Shown in pieces: positions 4,013 to 32,256 of a stretch of 64,000 bases of DNA; position 1 is the stretch's first letter; each line of letters starts with the position of its first letter. Source of the stretch: Escherichia phage vB_VIPECOMC06; the sequence record PQ416618.1; one strand, written 5' to 3'. The position numbers were made by a program, and so were the translations under genes. The notes beneath the pieces were generated by a model. It had not been told where the DNA came from and did not search any database. It saw only the letters and a program-made list of their open reading frames with translations.

Positions 4013-4381
4013 ATGATTGAAATTAAATTGAAGAACCCTGAAGATTTTCTGAAAGTCAAAGAGACTTTGACCCGTATGGGCATCGCTAATAACAAGGATA
4101 AAGTCCTTTACCAGTCTTGTCATATCCTCCAAAAGCAAGGTAAGTACTATATCGTCCACTTTAAAGAAATGCTGCGTATGGACGGACGTCAGGTTGATAT
4201 TGATGGTGAAGACTATCAGCGACGTGATTCGATTGCTCAGTTGCTTGAAGAATGGGGATTGATTGTTATTGAAGACTCTGCTCGTGAAGATCTGTTTGGC
4301 CTGACTAATAACTTCCGTGTTATCTCTTTTAAACAGAAAGATGACTGGACTTTGAAAGCAAAATATACAATTGGTAATTAA
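4013..4381 (+). CDS. regA: Translational repressor RegA
   Basis: 122 aa from ATG 4013 (track start 4004 is 3 codons upstream and overlaps the gp62 stop); sequence MIEIKLKNPEDFLKVKETLTRMGIANNKDKVLYQSCHILQ is T4 RegA-like. Confidence 0.85.
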   Translation: MIEIKLKNPEDFLKVKETLTRMGIANNKDKVLYQSCHILQKQGKYYIVHFKEMLRMDGRQVDIDGEDYQRRDSIAQLLEEWGLIVIEDSAREDLFGLTNNFRVISFKQKDDWTLKAKYTIGN

Positions 4382-25540: not shown

Positions 25541-26850
25541 CATTTGATGATTTGACTGAAGGCCAGAAAAACGCCTTCAACGTTGTTATGAACGCTATTA
25601 AAGAAAAGAAACATCACGTAACTATTAATGGGCCTGCTGGTACAGGTAAAACAACCCTTACTAGATTCATCGTTGAAGCCCTTATTTCTTCTGGAGAATC
25701 AGGTATTATTTTAGCAGCCCCTACACATGCCGCTAAAAAGGTTCTAAGCAAACTTGCTGGACAAGAAGCATCGACTATTCATAGCATTCTTAAAATCAAC
25801 CCAACTACATACGAAGAAAACGTATTGTTTGAACAGAAAAAGGTTCCCGACTTAGCCTTGTGCCGTGTACTGTTATTTGATGAAGCATCAATGTGCGACC
25901 GTTCTCTGTTTAAAATAATGTTAGCTAGTATCCCTAAATGGTGTACAGTAATTGGAATCGGCGACCGATGCCAGATTCGTCCAGTAGACCCAGGCGAATC
26001 AACTGCGTATCTAAGTCCTTTCTTCACTCACAAAGACTTCGTGCAATGCAACCTTACAGAAGTTAAACGTAGCAATGCGCCAATTATTGATGTTGCGACT
26101 GATATTCGTAATGGCAAATGGATTTATGATAAAGTAGTTGATGGACATGGTGTTCATGGATATACAGACCTTAAATCGTATATGATGAACTATTTTAATG
26201 TCGTTAAAACTCCTGAAGACCTTTTCGAAAATCGAATGATGGCATTCACAAATAAGTCGGTGGACAAGTTAAATTCAATTATTCGCCGAAAACTTCTTGA
26301 AACAGAAAAACCATTTATTAAAGACGAAGTCATTGTTCTACAAGAGCCATTTACTAAGACATATAAGCTAGATGGTAAAAATATGACCGAAATGCTTTTC
26401 AATAACGGTCAATTCGTTCGTATTCGAGATGCTGTAGAAACGTCTACATTCGTTAAAGCACGTGGTGTTTCGGGCGAATATATGATACGATACTGGAATC
26501 TTACAGTAGAAACATATGGGGATGATGAAGAATACATCCGTGAAGATATAAAGGTTATTTCTTCTGAAGAAGAGCTTTATAAATTCAATTTGTTTTTGGC
26601 TAAGACAGCAGAAACATACAAATTCTGGAATAAAGGTGGTAAAGCTCCATGGAGCGAATTCTGGGATGCTAAACGTATGTTCACTAAGGTGAAGGCACTA
26701 CCAGTATCAACCTTCCATAAGGCTCAGGGTATGTCTGTTGACACGGCCTTTGTTTATACACCGTGTATCCATTATGCCGATTCAGAATTAGCTAAACAGT
26801 TATTGTATGTCGGCACAACTCGTGGCCGGTTTGACGTCCATTTTATTTGA
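25537..26850 (+). CDS. dda: Dda DNA helicase (SF1B)
   Basis: 437 aa; Walker A GPAGTGKTT; N-terminus MTFDDLTEGQKNAFN matches T4 Dda. Confidence 0.9.
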   Translation: MTFDDLTEGQKNAFNVVMNAIKEKKHHVTINGPAGTGKTTLTRFIVEALISSGESGIILAAPTHAAKKVLSKLAGQEASTIHSILKINPTTYEENVLFEQKKVPDLALCRVLLFDEASMCDRSLFKIMLASIPKWCTVIGIGDRCQIRPVDPGESTAYLSPFFTHKDFVQCNLTEVKRSNAPIIDVATDIRNGKWIYDKVVDGHGVHGYTDLKSYMMNYFNVVKTPEDLFENRMMAFTNKSVDKLNSIIRRKLLETEKPFIKDEVIVLQEPFTKTYKLDGKNMTEMLFNNGQFVRIRDAVETSTFVKARGVSGEYMIRYWNLTVETYGDDEEYIREDIKVISSEEELYKFNLFLAKTAETYKFWNKGGKAPWSEFWDAKRMFTKVKALPVSTFHKAQGMSVDTAFVYTPCIHYADSELAKQLLYVGTTRGRFDVHFI

Positions 26851-26859
26851 GAGAAAATT

Positions 26860-27537
26860 ATGAGCACTGATGTTATTATAGATTTTGAAACATTCGGCAA
26901 TACATCAAAAGCGGCTGTTATTGACCTTGCGGTTATTGCATATAATTCCGGCCCTGAAGTTGTTGAATCATTTGAAGAACTTGTTCAACGAGGTAAGCGA
27001 ATTAAATTTAATTTAGCTTCTCAGAAAGGGAAGCGAGTTTTCGCTAAATCCACTATGAAATGGTGGAAAGAACAATCGGCTGAAGCACGTAAAAACTTGG
27101 CTCCGTCTGAAGACGATGTCACTACGCTTGAAGGCATTAAAATCTTTTTAGATTATTGTCGAGCTAATAAAGTTGACCAATGGAAATCACAGATGTGGTG
27201 CCGTGGTATGAGCTTTGACTTCCCGATCTTGGTCGATTTGATTCGTGACCTCTATCGTGATGAAGGTGTTCTTGAACCAGATATTGATACTGATAAATTA
27301 GAACCGGTTAAATTCTGGGCTCAACGTGATATTCGTACGGCAATCGAAGCTTACTCGTTGACACGAGGATTAAGTATGTGTCCATTACCGATGGGTACGC
27401 TAAAAGGATTCATTGCCCATGATAGTATTCATGATTGTGCTAAAGATATTTTGATGTTAAAATATGCTCAGCGTTATGCGCTTGGCCTTGAAGATGTCCC
27501 TGAGAATCCTGACCCGTTAAGTGTAAAACAGCGATAA
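26860..27537 (+). CDS. dexA: Exonuclease A (DexA), DnaQ-like 3'-5' exonuclease
   Basis: 225 aa; DEDD exo motif I IIDFETFG; directly downstream of dda as in T4. Confidence 0.8.
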   Translation: MSTDVIIDFETFGNTSKAAVIDLAVIAYNSGPEVVESFEELVQRGKRIKFNLASQKGKRVFAKSTMKWWKEQSAEARKNLAPSEDDVTTLEGIKIFLDYCRANKVDQWKSQMWCRGMSFDFPILVDLIRDLYRDEGVLEPDIDTDKLEPVKFWAQRDIRTAIEAYSLTRGLSMCPLPMGTLKGFIAHDSIHDCAKDILMLKYAQRYALGLEDVPENPDPLSVKQR

Positions 27538-27542
27538 AACCA

Positions 27543-27572
27543 GTTTACAACCAAGGATGGTTGGAGTATAAT
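27543..27572 (+). promoter_or_regulatory. T4-type early promoter (-35 GTTTAC, -10 TATAAT)
   Basis: GTTTAC 27543-27548, 18-nt spacer, TATAAT 27567-27572. Confidence 0.55.
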
Positions 27573-27601
27573 GAATTCAATTAAACAAAGAGAGAGAAAT
27601 T

Positions 27602-28057
27602 ATGATTACTATTGGTGAAATTAAGTATGTATCGCCTGTATCTCGTTCTAAAGCTGCAGGACGATTGGTTGAAGTGGTGGGACTTCGCACAAATGGCATG
27701 GGACGCATTAAAGAAGTTAAAGTTCGAATCATTCATAACTCCGGGCAAAAAGATGTTCAGTTCGCTTATGTAAGTCCTAAATTCTTGGAAACTCCTGCGA
27801 GCGCTCATTCTGCTTCTACCGAACCTAATGTACAGTTCAAATGGGCCCTTTGCAAAGGCGTTGAATTTATAACCGATAAAGAATTTGATTACATCGACGA
27901 ATACGGTTATCCAAGCAAAACTGATACTATGTGTGGCTTCATTAGTGACCAATGGGTTGAAGATGGTGAAAAGCTATACAATATCGTATTCTTAGGTGAC
28001 TTCCGAGTTGTTAAAGAATCTGAAATCACTCGCTATGTGTCTCCTCGTAAAGCTTAA
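27602..28057 (+). CDS. Hypothetical protein, paralog 1 of a tandem pair (151 aa)
   Basis: Shares motifs with the next ORF (KAAGRLVEV / KVAGKLVEV; KLYNIVF; WVEDG). Confidence 0.5.
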   Translation: MITIGEIKYVSPVSRSKAAGRLVEVVGLRTNGMGRIKEVKVRIIHNSGQKDVQFAYVSPKFLETPASAHSASTEPNVQFKWALCKGVEFITDKEFDYIDEYGYPSKTDTMCGFISDQWVEDGEKLYNIVFLGDFRVVKESEITRYVSPRKA

Positions 28058-28066
28058 GGAATTATT

Positions 28067-28486
28067 ATGAATATTGTAAATCTCTCTACAGGTGATTACG
28101 TATATGTATCTGTTGCTTCTCACTCTAAAGTTGCCGGGAAGTTGGTTGAAGTTCTTTCTGTGAGTGATCCGGTTTTTGGACGTAACCAAGTTAAAGTTCG
28201 TGATGCTAATGGTAATATTGGTTACGTTAAAAGCCAATTCATTGAACCAGAAGAAAAAGCGTTCAAATGGGGACTATGCAGATCAGTTTCTGTTGAAAAA
28301 GACCATGAATTCACTATTGCTGCGGCAACTGATGGAACACCGTGGAAAACTAAGCAAATCGCCGGATTTATTAGCGACCGTTGGGTAGAAGATGGTGTTA
28401 AGCTTTATAACATCGTTTTCGCTGGACAGTTCATGGTAGTTCCTGAATTCCAAATTAAAAAATATAGCCCAGCTGCTTTCGCATAA
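28067..28486 (+). CDS. Hypothetical protein, paralog 2 of a tandem pair (139 aa)
   Basis: Clear sequence similarity to ORF 27602..28057. Confidence 0.5.
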   Translation: MNIVNLSTGDYVYVSVASHSKVAGKLVEVLSVSDPVFGRNQVKVRDANGNIGYVKSQFIEPEEKAFKWGLCRSVSVEKDHEFTIAAATDGTPWKTKQIAGFISDRWVEDGVKLYNIVFAGQFMVVPEFQIKKYSPAAFA

Positions 28487-28490
28487 AGTT

Positions 28491-28519
28491 GTTTACTTCT
28501 CCTCCGGTTTTGATATTAT
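28491..28519 (+). promoter_or_regulatory. T4-type early promoter (-35 GTTTAC, extended -10 TGaTATTAT)
   Basis: GTTTAC 28491-28496, 17-nt spacer, TATTAT 28514-28519. Confidence 0.55.
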
Positions 28520-28545
28520 AACCATATCAACCAGAGGAGAATAAT

Positions 28546-29070
28546 ATGTTAGTTTACCGCGTAGAACGTAGTTTTTGTACTCAACGTGAATCATTACCAG
28601 GAATTGCTATCGAAGATGGTAAAGCCGTCAGAATTTGGGAAACCTCTTGGAATAAAGAACCTCGCTCGCCATACGGTTGGTCGGGCACCGACAACTCTGA
28701 AGAAACATGGGAGTTCCTTGATAAGCATGGAATAATCTCAGGTAACTTCTACCATCACGGCGACAACTATAATGTCCCTAATCGTCCTACAGTAAATGAA
28801 GACAAACTCCTTGAACAAAATATCTTAAGATACCATAGAATTGAGCACACATTTGAATTGAGTGAAGATTGGGCTCAAGGGTTCTATTTTGGATTTGAAA
28901 GTGTTGACGCGGTTTATGCATGGTTTGATGACCAGATGGATGTTGAACTCTTGAAAGCTAAAGGATACTACATCGCGATCTATGAAGCACCTGATTTCAT
29001 CCTCGGAAGTTGTCAATTAATGTTTAGACGTTCATTGGCAGAACAAGTTGATTTTATTTTGCTAAAATGA
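28546..29070 (+). CDS. Hypothetical protein (174 aa)
   Basis: RBS agaggag; early promoter upstream. Confidence 0.5.
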   Translation: MLVYRVERSFCTQRESLPGIAIEDGKAVRIWETSWNKEPRSPYGWSGTDNSEETWEFLDKHGIISGNFYHHGDNYNVPNRPTVNEDKLLEQNILRYHRIEHTFELSEDWAQGFYFGFESVDAVYAWFDDQMDVELLKAKGYYIAIYEAPDFILGSCQLMFRRSLAEQVDFILLK

Positions 29071-29099
29071 TGTACAACAACTACGGTCTATGATACTAT
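29071..29099 (+). promoter_or_regulatory. Early promoter variant (-35 TGTACA, extended -10 TGaTACTAT) with palindrome ggtcta / tagacc around the -10
   Basis: TGTACA 29071-29076; TACTAT 29094-29099; inverted repeat 29085-29090 / 29099-29104. Confidence 0.5.
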
Positions 29100-29127
29100 A
29101 GACCTATCAAAACAAGAGGAGAATATT

Positions 29128-29355
29128 ATGAAACGTCAAATCATTAAAAACGTGACTACTGATTCAAACATCGATGAGTTTGAAGATGTTCTGTTTAATC
29201 CTGATTTAGTTGTTGTACAGAAAAACTGGACCGAATTTTTATGCTACACTGAAGTGGTTTACGTTTATGAAAAACTCGGTGATGAAATGCCTATCTATGG
29301 TATCTTCCGTGAAATCACTGAAAACGGTACAACTTATTGGAAGGAAACTTACTAA
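29128..29355 (+). CDS. Hypothetical protein (75 aa)
   Basis: RBS agaggag upstream. Confidence 0.45.
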
Positions 29356-29765
29356 TGGCTAATAAATTCCGCGTTAACTCATGGTACCAATTTATAGATA
29401 AACGTGCCCAAGAAGAGTTTATTAAAGACCACACTGATAACGGGATTTATGCACGACGTCTTGGCATGGAACCATTTAAAGTATTAGATGTTGACCATCT
29501 TGGTCGTCCTACTAAAATTGTGACATCTACTGGCACGGTTGGATACGCAACAGGCGGTGATATTCTTGATGAAAACTTTATCTGGCTCTCTACTAGTGAA
29601 GCAGAGTTTTTTGACGAAGTGGGAAATCCATATCAAGCGTCTGAAGAGCAAGATTCTGGTGAACTTGACGAATTGACTGAATTTCCTGTGATGACGATTA
29701 CTATCGAAAATAACGACCAGGCATGGTCTTTGTATCAAATGTTGAAAGCACATTTTAAGGAATAA
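29355..29765 (+). CDS. Hypothetical acidic protein (136 aa)
   Basis: ATG 29355 in a TAATG overlap with the upstream stop (track start 29337 is an upstream TTG). Confidence 0.45.
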
Positions 29766-29949: not shown

Positions 29950-30375
29950 ATGGCTTTTAAAGGTTTTGAAGTTGGTAAGAAATATCGTATTATCAAAGGA
30001 CAGGAAGATAATTTCTTGAGAATGCTTAATACGACTGGTAAACGTCTTAATACTAATCTGCATACTACTTTATTGTCCAAAGATTTTATTGTAGAAGAGA
30101 TGATTGGTTACGGCGTTTCGATTATTGCTGTAGAAGCCGTAGGCGATTATGGCCGAACTATTCATAGTATGCAAGGTGATATTCTGCTTTATGGTGCAGA
30201 ATTTAAATTCTTTGAAGAAGTTCCGGAACCAGATACAGCTGTCGATTTCAAAAAAGGCTCTGTAGAATTTGTTGATGGTTCGGTGATCGTATCAGGTGAT
30301 GTGGTCATTACAGTTAAAAGTGAACAAGGGCGTTTGGCTGCAATTGATGCACTTCAGAAAATTAAATTTAAATAA
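29950..30375 (+). CDS. Hypothetical protein (141 aa), upstream of gene 39
   Basis: Followed by a clean intrinsic terminator. Confidence 0.5.
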   Translation: MAFKGFEVGKKYRIIKGQEDNFLRMLNTTGKRLNTNLHTTLLSKDFIVEEMIGYGVSIIAVEAVGDYGRTIHSMQGDILLYGAEFKFFEEVPEPDTAVDFKKGSVEFVDGSVIVSGDVVITVKSEQGRLAAIDALQKIKFK

Positions 30376-30438: not shown

Positions 30439-32256
30439 ATGATTAAAAATGAAATTAAGGTATTGTCAGATGTAGAACATATTAAGAAACGCAGTGGCAT
30501 GTATATTGGTTCTTCGGCCAAAGAAGCCCACGAGCGTTTTTTGTTTGGTAAATATCAACAAGTTGAATATGTTCCTGGTCTGGTTAAATTAATCGATGAG
30601 ATTATTGACAACTCGGTTGATGAAGCTATTCGTACATCATTTAAGTTTGCAAATAAAATCGATGTGCAAATTAAAAATAATCAAGTTTCGGTGGAAGATA
30701 ACGGACGTGGTATTCCTCAAGGTTTAGTTACTGACCAAACAGGTGAACAAATTCCTGGGCCTGTAGCAGCCTGGACTATTCCAAAGGCTGGCGGCAACTT
30801 TGGCGATGACTCTGAACGCAAGACTGGTGGTATGAACGGCGTCGGGAGTAGTTTAACTAATATCTTCTCTACGTTGTTTACAGGCATCACGTCAGATGGC
30901 GAAAATGAAATCACCGTTAACTGTTCAAACGGAATGGAAAACAAATCATGGTCTTCTAAGAAATCTAAAGGTAAAGGCACTAAAGTAATCTTCACTCCTG
31001 ATTTCTCTTCATTTGAAGAACATAATTTATCTCAAATTTATTTAGATATTACTTTAGACCGACTTCAAACGTTGGCAGTCGTTTATCCTGATATCAAGTT
31101 CACATTTAATGGTAAAAAGGTTGATGGTAATTTTAAACGATTTGCTAAACAATTTGGCGAAGATAACATCATTCAAGAAAATGATAAAGTCTCTATAGCA
31201 TTCACAACATCACCAGACGGCTTCCGTCATTTAACTTATGTGAATAACATCCATACTAAAAATGGCGGTCATCATGTTGAATGTGTAATGGATGATATCT
31301 GCGAACATCTTTTGCCGGGTATTAAAAAGAAATATAAGGGTATTGAAGTCACTAAAGCTCGTGTTAAAGAATGCCTCACAATGTTGATGTTTATTAGAGA
31401 CATGAGCAACATGCGTTTTGATTCTCAGACTAAAGAACGTTTAACGTCAACGTATGGTGATATTCGTAATCATATCCAATTAGATGCTAAGAAAATTGCT
31501 CAGGCACTTCTTAAAAACGAAGCCTTGATTATGCCTATTGTTGAAGCAGCATTAGCTCGTAAATTGGCAGCAGAAAAGGCTGCAGAAACTAAAGCAGCTA
31601 AAAAGGCAACTAAAGCTAAGGTTCATAAGCATATTAAAGCTAACCAATGCGGTAAAGATGCAGATACGACATTGTTCTTAACAGAAGGTGATTCAGCAAT
31701 TGGTTATCTCATTGATGTTCGTGACCGTGAACTACACGGCGGATTCCCATTACGTGGTAAGGTGATGAATAGCTGGGGTATGTCATATGCTGATATGATG
31801 AAGAACAAAGAGCTCTTTGATATCTGTGCTATCACAGGTCTTATTCTTGGTGAAAAGGCAGAGAATACAAACTATCGTAATATTGCAATTATGACCGATG
31901 CCGATCATGACGGTCTTGGAAGTATTTATCCGGCTTTGCTTGCTTTCTTTAGTAATTGGCCTGAATTGTTTGAACAAGGACGTATTCGCTTTGTTAAAAC
32001 TCCTGTAATTATTGCACAAATTGGCAAAACTCAAAAATGGTTTTATACTGTAGCTGAGTATGAAGAAGCTAAAGATACACTGCCTAAGCATAGTATTCGA
32101 TACATCAAGGGATTGGGCTCCCTTGAAAAGTCAGAATATCGTGAAATGATTCAGAACCCTGTGTACGACGTAGTTAAACTTCCTGAAAATTGGAAAGAAC
32201 TCTTTGAAATGTTGTTGGGTGATGATTCAGAACTTCGTAAAGAATGGATGTCCTAA
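30439..32256 (+). CDS. 39: Topoisomerase II large subunit gp39, unsplit form (GyrB-like GHKL ATPase plus TOPRIM)
   Basis: 605 aa; GHKL motif EDNGRGIP, TOPRIM LTEGDSAIG; continuous through the region that is a separate gene 60 in T4. Confidence 0.9.
   Translation: MIKNEIKVLSDVEHIKKRSGMYIGSSAKEAHERFLFGKYQQVEYVPGLVKLIDEIIDNSVDEAIRTSFKFANKIDVQIKNNQVSVEDNGRGIPQGLVTDQTGEQIPGPVAAWTIPKAGGNFGDDSERKTGGMNGVGSSLTNIFSTLFTGITSDGENEITVNCSNGMENKSWSSKKSKGKGTKVIFTPDFSSFEEHNLSQIYLDITLDRLQTLAVVYPDIKFTFNGKKVDGNFKRFAKQFGEDNIIQENDKVSIAFTTSPDGFRHLTYVNNIHTKNGGHHVECVMDDICEHLLPGIKKKYKGIEVTKARVKECLTMLMFIRDMSNMRFDSQTKERLTSTYGDIRNHIQLDAKKIAQALLKNEALIMPIVEAALARKLAAEKAAETKAAKKATKAKVHKHIKANQCGKDADTTLFLTEGDSAIGYLIDVRDRELHGGFPLRGKVMNSWGMSYADMMKNKELFDICAITGLILGEKAENTNYRNIAIMTDADHDGLGSIYPALLAFFSNWPELFEQGRIRFVKTPVIIAQIGKTQKWFYTVAEYEEAKDTLPKHSIRYIKGLGSLEKSEYREMIQNPVYDVVKLPENWKELFEMLLGDDSELRKEWMS

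Follow-up and report, generated by a model that had tools for sequence, protein, structure and literature searches.

Two MotB-type genes in the early dexA–cef segment

We analysed a 64,000-nt stretch of the genome of Escherichia phage vB_VIPECOMC06 (PQ416618.1), hereafter the window, in which two short open reading frames lie head to tail on the plus strand. ORF A (27602–28057) begins with ATG and encodes 151 aa; ORF B (28067–28486) also begins with ATG and encodes 139 aa. The initial annotation had placed both frames at exactly these coordinates, downstream of dexA, and the identity of that neighbour is borne out. The upstream gene (26860–27537, plus strand) matches phrog_255, an exonuclease family (E = 1e-80), and Pfam PF16473, the Rv2179c-like exonucleases (E = 7e-20), and its counterparts in phages PTK and O157tp3 are annotated as dexA (exonuclease A) or exonuclease. 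Downstream of B follows a homologue of T4 motB.2 (28546–29070, plus strand, 174 aa; 34% identity, E = 4e-15; phrog_1106), the counterparts of which in relatives are annotated as similar to RB69 motB.2. We note that this gene is unrelated to MotB, its name notwithstanding.

Across the wider segment the genes run srd, dda.1, dda, dexA, A, B, the motB.2 homologue, cef, goF, 39.2, a goF-like ORF and gene 39, and the early-region order srd–dda.1–dda–dexA–...–cef–goF–39.2–39 is common to the window, T4 and RB69. The motB.2 homologue lies 3' of the motB pair in the window; in T4 and RB6 it directly follows dexA, upstream of motB.1. The order of genes inside the early block has been rearranged between genera. 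Further along, goF (29355–29765) encodes a protein 74% identical to T4 GoF and matches phrog_622, as does a 141-aa ORF of the RB69ORF005c type two genes past it (29950–30375); these form a second, far more diverged pair of paralogues, belonging to the LSm-like GoF/MotB.1/Frd.2 group. Gene 39, encoding the large subunit of topoisomerase II (30439–32256), is a single ORF of 605 aa, the '60plus39' form that RB69 also has; in T4 it is split.

The spacer between A and B measures 9 nt, and a Shine–Dalgarno sequence for B (AAGGA) overlaps the stop codon of A. Judged by consensus match only, the best promoter-like site within 26800–29200 is of the sigma-70/T4-early type and sits in the dexA–A intergenic region (27538–27601) at 27544–27572 on the plus strand (TTTACA, 17 nt, TATAAT; 11 of 12 consensus positions). 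A second promoter-like site, on the same strand at 28492–28519 (TTTACT, 16 nt, TATTAT, with TG; 9 of 12), would mark where the A–B unit stops and a new one begins. The consensus scan found no excess of promoter-like sites in the region over shuffled sequence, and an Rfam scan of 26800–29400 at E <= 1 returned zero matches, giving no sign of structured RNA in or between the genes. With one promoter-like site upstream, a 9-nt spacer and a Shine–Dalgarno sequence between them, A and B probably form a single early transcription unit and are made together from one transcript.

The two proteins are clear paralogues, as the initial annotation had proposed. BLASTP aligned them with 61 identities over 145 aa (42%; 94.7 bits, E = 1e-30), far above chance, and the motifs K[AV]AG[RK]LVEV, FKW[AG]LC and GFISD[QR]WVEDG[EV]KLYNIVF are all present in the same order in both. 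That annotation had not recognised the family, but its assignment to host-takeover genes fits, as both ORFs belong to the early gene family MotB. On the Pfam motB model (PF17613, 'modifier of transcription'; gathering cut-off, 25 bits), A scored 124.2 bits (E = 5.8e-36, residues 1–146) and B 73.6 bits (E = 2.1e-20); both also matched phrog_1671, 'MotB-like transcriptional regulator' (E = 5e-62 for A and 4.5e-50 for B). In a 24-sequence alignment, all 12 family-invariant residues (S.S...G in the N-domain; D.W...G..L.N.V..G...V in the C-domain) were found in A and again in B, together with the C-barrel family signature G[FWY][IV][ST]D.W[IV]E[DEG]G..L.N[IVA]V. The location is that of the family too: the early dexA–cef segment of a Tevenvirinae genome, with the promoter identified by consensus match only.

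Compared with T4 MotB, A and B have the same KOW-like N-domain and a C-barrel with the DQWVEDG..LYN.VF core. The T4 gene finds its counterpart, by position and by best score, in A (47% identity, E = 6e-41), although A has 151 rather than 162 aa and a different linker; B is only 36% identical and shorter still, and T4 itself carries a single motB. The closer parallel is RB69. A corresponds in position and length to RB69 motB (RB69p011) and B to RB69p010 (RB69ORF010c), with identical protein lengths and gene order and with the motB.2 homologue, cef and goF as neighbours in both phages. Unlike the window, RB69 carries a motB.1 gene, frameshifted, between dexA and motB. Over a 2.2-kb segment the window shares 97.8% identity with Escherichia phage PTK and 95–96% with many Mosigvirus genomes; the phage is an RB69-like T-even phage of the genus Mosigvirus. 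One residue sets this B apart: codon 19 (28121–28123) encodes His within the SRSK motif of the KOW-like domain (giving SHSK), at a position where the usual residue, in all 10 other B-type genes examined, is Arg.

The pair itself is already known. RB69ORF010c was described as a paralogous duplication of motB (Nolan 2006, PMC1524935), RB69 was later reported to have two motB copies, one motB.1 and one 29-aa peptide (Patterson-West 2021, Viruses 13:84, PMC7827196), and two neighbouring genes carry the label 'MotB-like transcriptional regulator' in the RefSeq entries of close relatives. The locus is therefore a real but ordinary finding and no new kind of system. We regard it as nearly certain that A is motB and that B is a separately conserved motB paralogue. 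The family to which they belong is small: a HMMER scan of 1.84 billion representatives yielded merely 30 clusters at E <= 0.001, none of them cellular, and a search of IMG/VR turned up only 13 loci. A word-indexed homologue search with B retrieved close relatives and A/B hybrids and no others, and a sequence search of the PDB with A gave no relevant match (best E = 0.92).

Deletion, truncation and fusion at the locus

In most Mosigvirus relatives, a 165-aa motB.1-like gene with an LSm-like N-domain and a MotB-type C-domain lies between dexA and A. The MotB.1 family has this combination of domains (Kim et al. 2025). T4 MotB.1 shares with A and B a C-terminal core, GW[VI]TDQWIEDGVELLNVV (E = 1e-9 to 1e-12 over about 40–77 aa); its N-domain is LSm/SH3-like, unrelated to the KOW-like N-domain of A and B, and the protein as a whole is acidic. 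The motB.1-like gene is missing from the window and from phages PTK, RPN187, AV116, AV114 and JM17, a deletion common to 5 of the 40 closest phage records. What remains in the window is the junction at 27538–27601 on the plus strand, which reads as a hybrid of the two flanking regions in O157tp3 (compare L001:3179–3798). Its 5' part equals the O157tp3 region upstream of motB.1 through TATAAT, bar one base outside the hexamers, and its 3' part equals the region upstream of motB. Both O157tp3 flanks contain a repeat of about 30 bp, GTT(T/G)TACA(A/T)CCAAGGATGG(T/A)TGGAGTATA(A/G)T. As the two flanks are joined inside this repeat, the motB.1-like gene has, on the sequence, been deleted precisely by recombination between early-promoter repeats.

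Independent 1-nt insertions, placed just 5' of the conserved MotB-type C-domain, truncate motB.1 in both reference phages: T4 motB.1 (119 aa) has an extra G in ATTGGAAGATGG (L003, about 4222–4310, minus strand), and RB69 motB.1 (132 aa, followed by a 29-aa ORF) has an extra T (L027, 4877–5373, minus strand). In the truncated genes the last 29 codons are readable in another frame; motB.1 is intact in RB6, slur07 and O157tp3. Because the T4 gene carries the insertion, the protein in published studies of T4 MotB.1 was a form truncated at its C-terminus.

The pair itself has also been resolved into single genes. Three metagenomic proteins are A/B fusions that join an A-type or T4-type N-domain to a B-type C-domain (the fusion genes lie at L023:1373–1894, L024:4001–4492, L025:2199–2690 and L026:37–528). 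The version with a T4-type N-domain was found on five contigs from at least three samples. Between motB.1 and cef no other motB-like gene accompanies the fusion, and the crossover falls inside the FKWKL codons (TTTAA(G/A)TGGAAACT), with about 8–14 nt of microhomology. We considered whether these hybrids were assembly chimeras and rejected this, given the recurrence of one hybrid across contigs and samples, its consistent gene context and a crossover within so little microhomology. The fusions look like natural collapses of the tandem pair by unequal crossover.

Selection, distribution and age of the split

A search of phage records with B returned 777 matches: 207 at 80% identity or more, 570 below 60% only, and none at 60–80%. 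The 570 are carriers of an A/T4-type gene only. Across the roughly 207 records the B protein is 86–99% identical, even though dS reaches 0.65, and it is intact at 139 aa in 11 of 11 loci examined. Median pairwise dN/dS was 0.24 over 45 pairs of A genes, with a mean dS of 0.46, and 0.13 over 55 pairs of B genes, with a mean dS of 0.42; both genes are under purifying selection, B more strongly. All Mosigvirus loci examined have exactly two copies, and none of the 11 loci contained a variable motB array.

T4 and most Tequatrovirus have one motB. Beyond Mosigvirus, a B-type gene occurs in Tequatrovirus RB6, behind a Mosigvirus-type motB, and in A6-6 (Tequatrovirus-like; a record without genus), behind a T4-type motB 96% identical to that of T4. 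A phage whose single motB is of the B type turned up neither in the phage collection nor in the homologue searches. As B recurs behind different motB types, it is the more constant partner of the pair, and A the variable one. Among relatives A is 72–98% identical, ranges from 151 to 176 aa and carries linker indels, and it can be mosaic: in Shf125875 and L008 a segment of the N-domain is nearly identical to T4 MotB (KLVEVVSIQLKEGVKDEDSEVKVRIIP). B is free of the variation seen when A of the window (27602–28057) is set against L008, L019, L020, L022 and L004.

Within the window, A and B differ by a dN of 0.51 and a saturated dS of 1.78; their DNA is 56% identical, and the longest exact run that they share is 13 nt. 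Long identical tracts are absent, and on that ground we rejected recent gene conversion between the two. We aligned a set of 47 MotB-type proteins, drawn from the window and 22 further loci (23 sources) and from distant database representatives, and built a neighbour-joining rather than a maximum-likelihood tree (200 bootstraps, 159 columns). Bootstrap support was 100% for the B clade and likewise for the clade of Mosigvirus A, and the 'long' MotBs, orthologues from four genera (the T4 type, Mosigvirus A and the group of loci L009–L017), excluded B at 94%. A and B were sisters in 6% of bootstraps on the full alignment and in 38% on the C-terminal domain, which does not resolve the branching order. 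B is roughly equidistant from all MotB groups (41–46% identity). Because B falls outside the long-MotB clade and is so rarely the sister of A, the split appears to predate the divergence of the motB orthologues of these genera, or else B came from a lineage that has not been sampled.

This second origin would make B a xenologue: a motB orthologue from an unsampled T4-like lineage that recombined in beside the resident motB, the cassette later passing between Mosigvirus and Tequatrovirus. The even distance of B from every MotB group and its place outside the long-MotB clade are what such a history predicts, as is an N-domain that, like those of distant homologues, lacks a 6-aa insertion. B sits behind two very different motB types, in RB6 and A6-6, and the locus is a mosaic, with a gene order unlike that of T4 and a T4-like N-domain segment in some A genes. 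Against this, the searches brought up neither a phage that relies on a B-type gene alone nor relatives of 60–80% identity that could mark a donor, and the C-terminal domain of B is slightly nearer to Mosigvirus A (51% identity) than to the others (44%). We consider a foreign origin rather unlikely.

Far less probable is a B without any function of its own, redundant or in decay. T4 and most Tequatrovirus do manage with one motB, the natural fusions reduce the pair to a single gene, and the motB.1 gene beside it has often been lost or frameshifted; yet B itself is intact in every locus examined, has a lower dN/dS than A, holds its protein sequence while synonymous sites diverge, and keeps every family-invariant residue. 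Least credible of all is a recent local tandem duplication, kept for dosage or as an anti-defence arms-race 'accordion': the head-to-tail layout with its 9-nt spacer, the shared motif order and the 42% identity accord with one, but low dS, long identical tracts and variable copy number are all missing, the B orthologues from two genera cluster tightly, and Pfam and PHROG searches returned only MotB for A and B, in a gene context without a hint of anti-defence. The initial annotation had called the pair a 'recent or maintained' duplication; the dN/dS values of both genes uphold its maintenance, and the saturated dS and the tree speak against its being recent. Our preferred reading remains an ancient paralogue of motB, kept beside it at a copy number of two.

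Predicted architecture and a possible division of labour

MotB has been predicted to consist of a KOW-like N-domain and an OB-fold C-domain (Patterson-West 2021, PMC7827196). Structure prediction with AlphaFold2, using the 24-sequence alignment, gave the same two-barrel fold for A and B, each model comprising two confident all-beta domains. In the model of B (pLDDT 89.4, pTM 0.78) a short helical connector links two beta-barrels. That of A (pLDDT 86.3, pTM 0.49) has two confident barrels and a disordered linker, with residues 67–75 below 50. Two elements of A and T4 MotB are absent from B: a 6-aa hairpin insertion in the N-domain (RIIxxxG) and the linker of 16–22 aa; the insertion is also missing from the distant homologues L018, P0037 and P0043–P0051.

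Fold searches of the PDB gave the same weak best matches for both models (E about 1e-3, TM 0.3–0.44, 13–16% identity): the tandem Tudor modules of 53BP1, UHRF1 and SGF29, SAWADEE, and KOW6-7 of Spt5. In BFVD, the model of B matched MotB-like and KOW-domain proteins of T4-like phages. The tandem Tudor and KOW modules resemble A and B in having two consecutive SH3-like barrels of similar size, a likeness of architecture without any relationship in sequence, and A and B show no sign of a Tudor aromatic cage or of histone-mark reading. We take the models to predict two tandem SH3-like barrels, the second of which may instead be an OB-fold, and not as evidence of Tudor function. The barrels differ in charge: the N-domain and C-domain carry +7 and -4 in A (a basic and an acidic barrel), +2 and +1 in B, and +5 and +2 in T4 MotB. 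With net charges of about +1 for A and B and +6 for T4 MotB, the affinity of A and B for non-specific DNA may differ from that of the T4 protein.

Son et al. 2021 (NAR) is reportedly, beside Patterson-West 2018 and 2021, an experimental source for T4 MotB. T4 MotB is an early protein with no sequence specificity in its binding of DNA, whether modified or not; H-NS and StpA co-purify with it, it is toxic to E. coli, it doubles burst size, and it alters the footprint of H-NS on DNA (PMC6070864, PMC7827196). Extrapolating from T4 MotB, to which A and B are 36–47% identical, we propose that both proteins of this host-takeover region, probably made from one early transcript, would bind DNA tightly without sequence specificity, coating and compacting it, and would displace or remodel H-NS and StpA on DNA. 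Such a disturbance of H-NS and StpA would favour phage growth and a larger burst. Because B retains all family-invariant residues, it would keep the core biochemistry.

On the predicted structures, B would nevertheless be specialised, with neither the flexible linker nor the basic hairpin insertion, and so rigid, compact and less polarised in charge. A, with its basic N-domain, acidic C-domain and floppy linker, and B would then split an ancestral job between them, for example as different modes of DNA binding or bridging or through different partners. That the two divide this job rather than doubling its dose is probable; whether B has a specialised role of its own is close to an even call. 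Taken jointly, the identity of the pair as motB and an ancient paralogue, a mechanism like that of T4 MotB, and a specialised B make a reading that we hold to be likely.

A more particular version, which we put forward tentatively as possible, is that B is a distinct functional partner, a compact, linker-less tandem barrel acting with or against MotB on DNA or H-NS. It might, for instance, cap or modulate MotB filaments, or prefer phage-modified to host DNA. If so, the fusions of an A N-domain to a B C-domain would mean that the domains are exchangeable modules, and the pair would amount to a two-component phage 'chromatin' system.

Few phage proteins have been shown to behave like nucleoid-associated proteins and to disturb H-NS silencing; MotB is among them. 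To what was known of the pair, our analysis adds how old the split is, that B is more tightly constrained than A, that the two barrels are predicted to be joined flexibly in A and rigidly in B, and that natural fusion genes exist. A second, more conserved and more compact MotB is kept by a whole genus and by some relatives of T4, and because of this, our findings suggest that the single-gene T4 model falls short of everything that the MotB family does.
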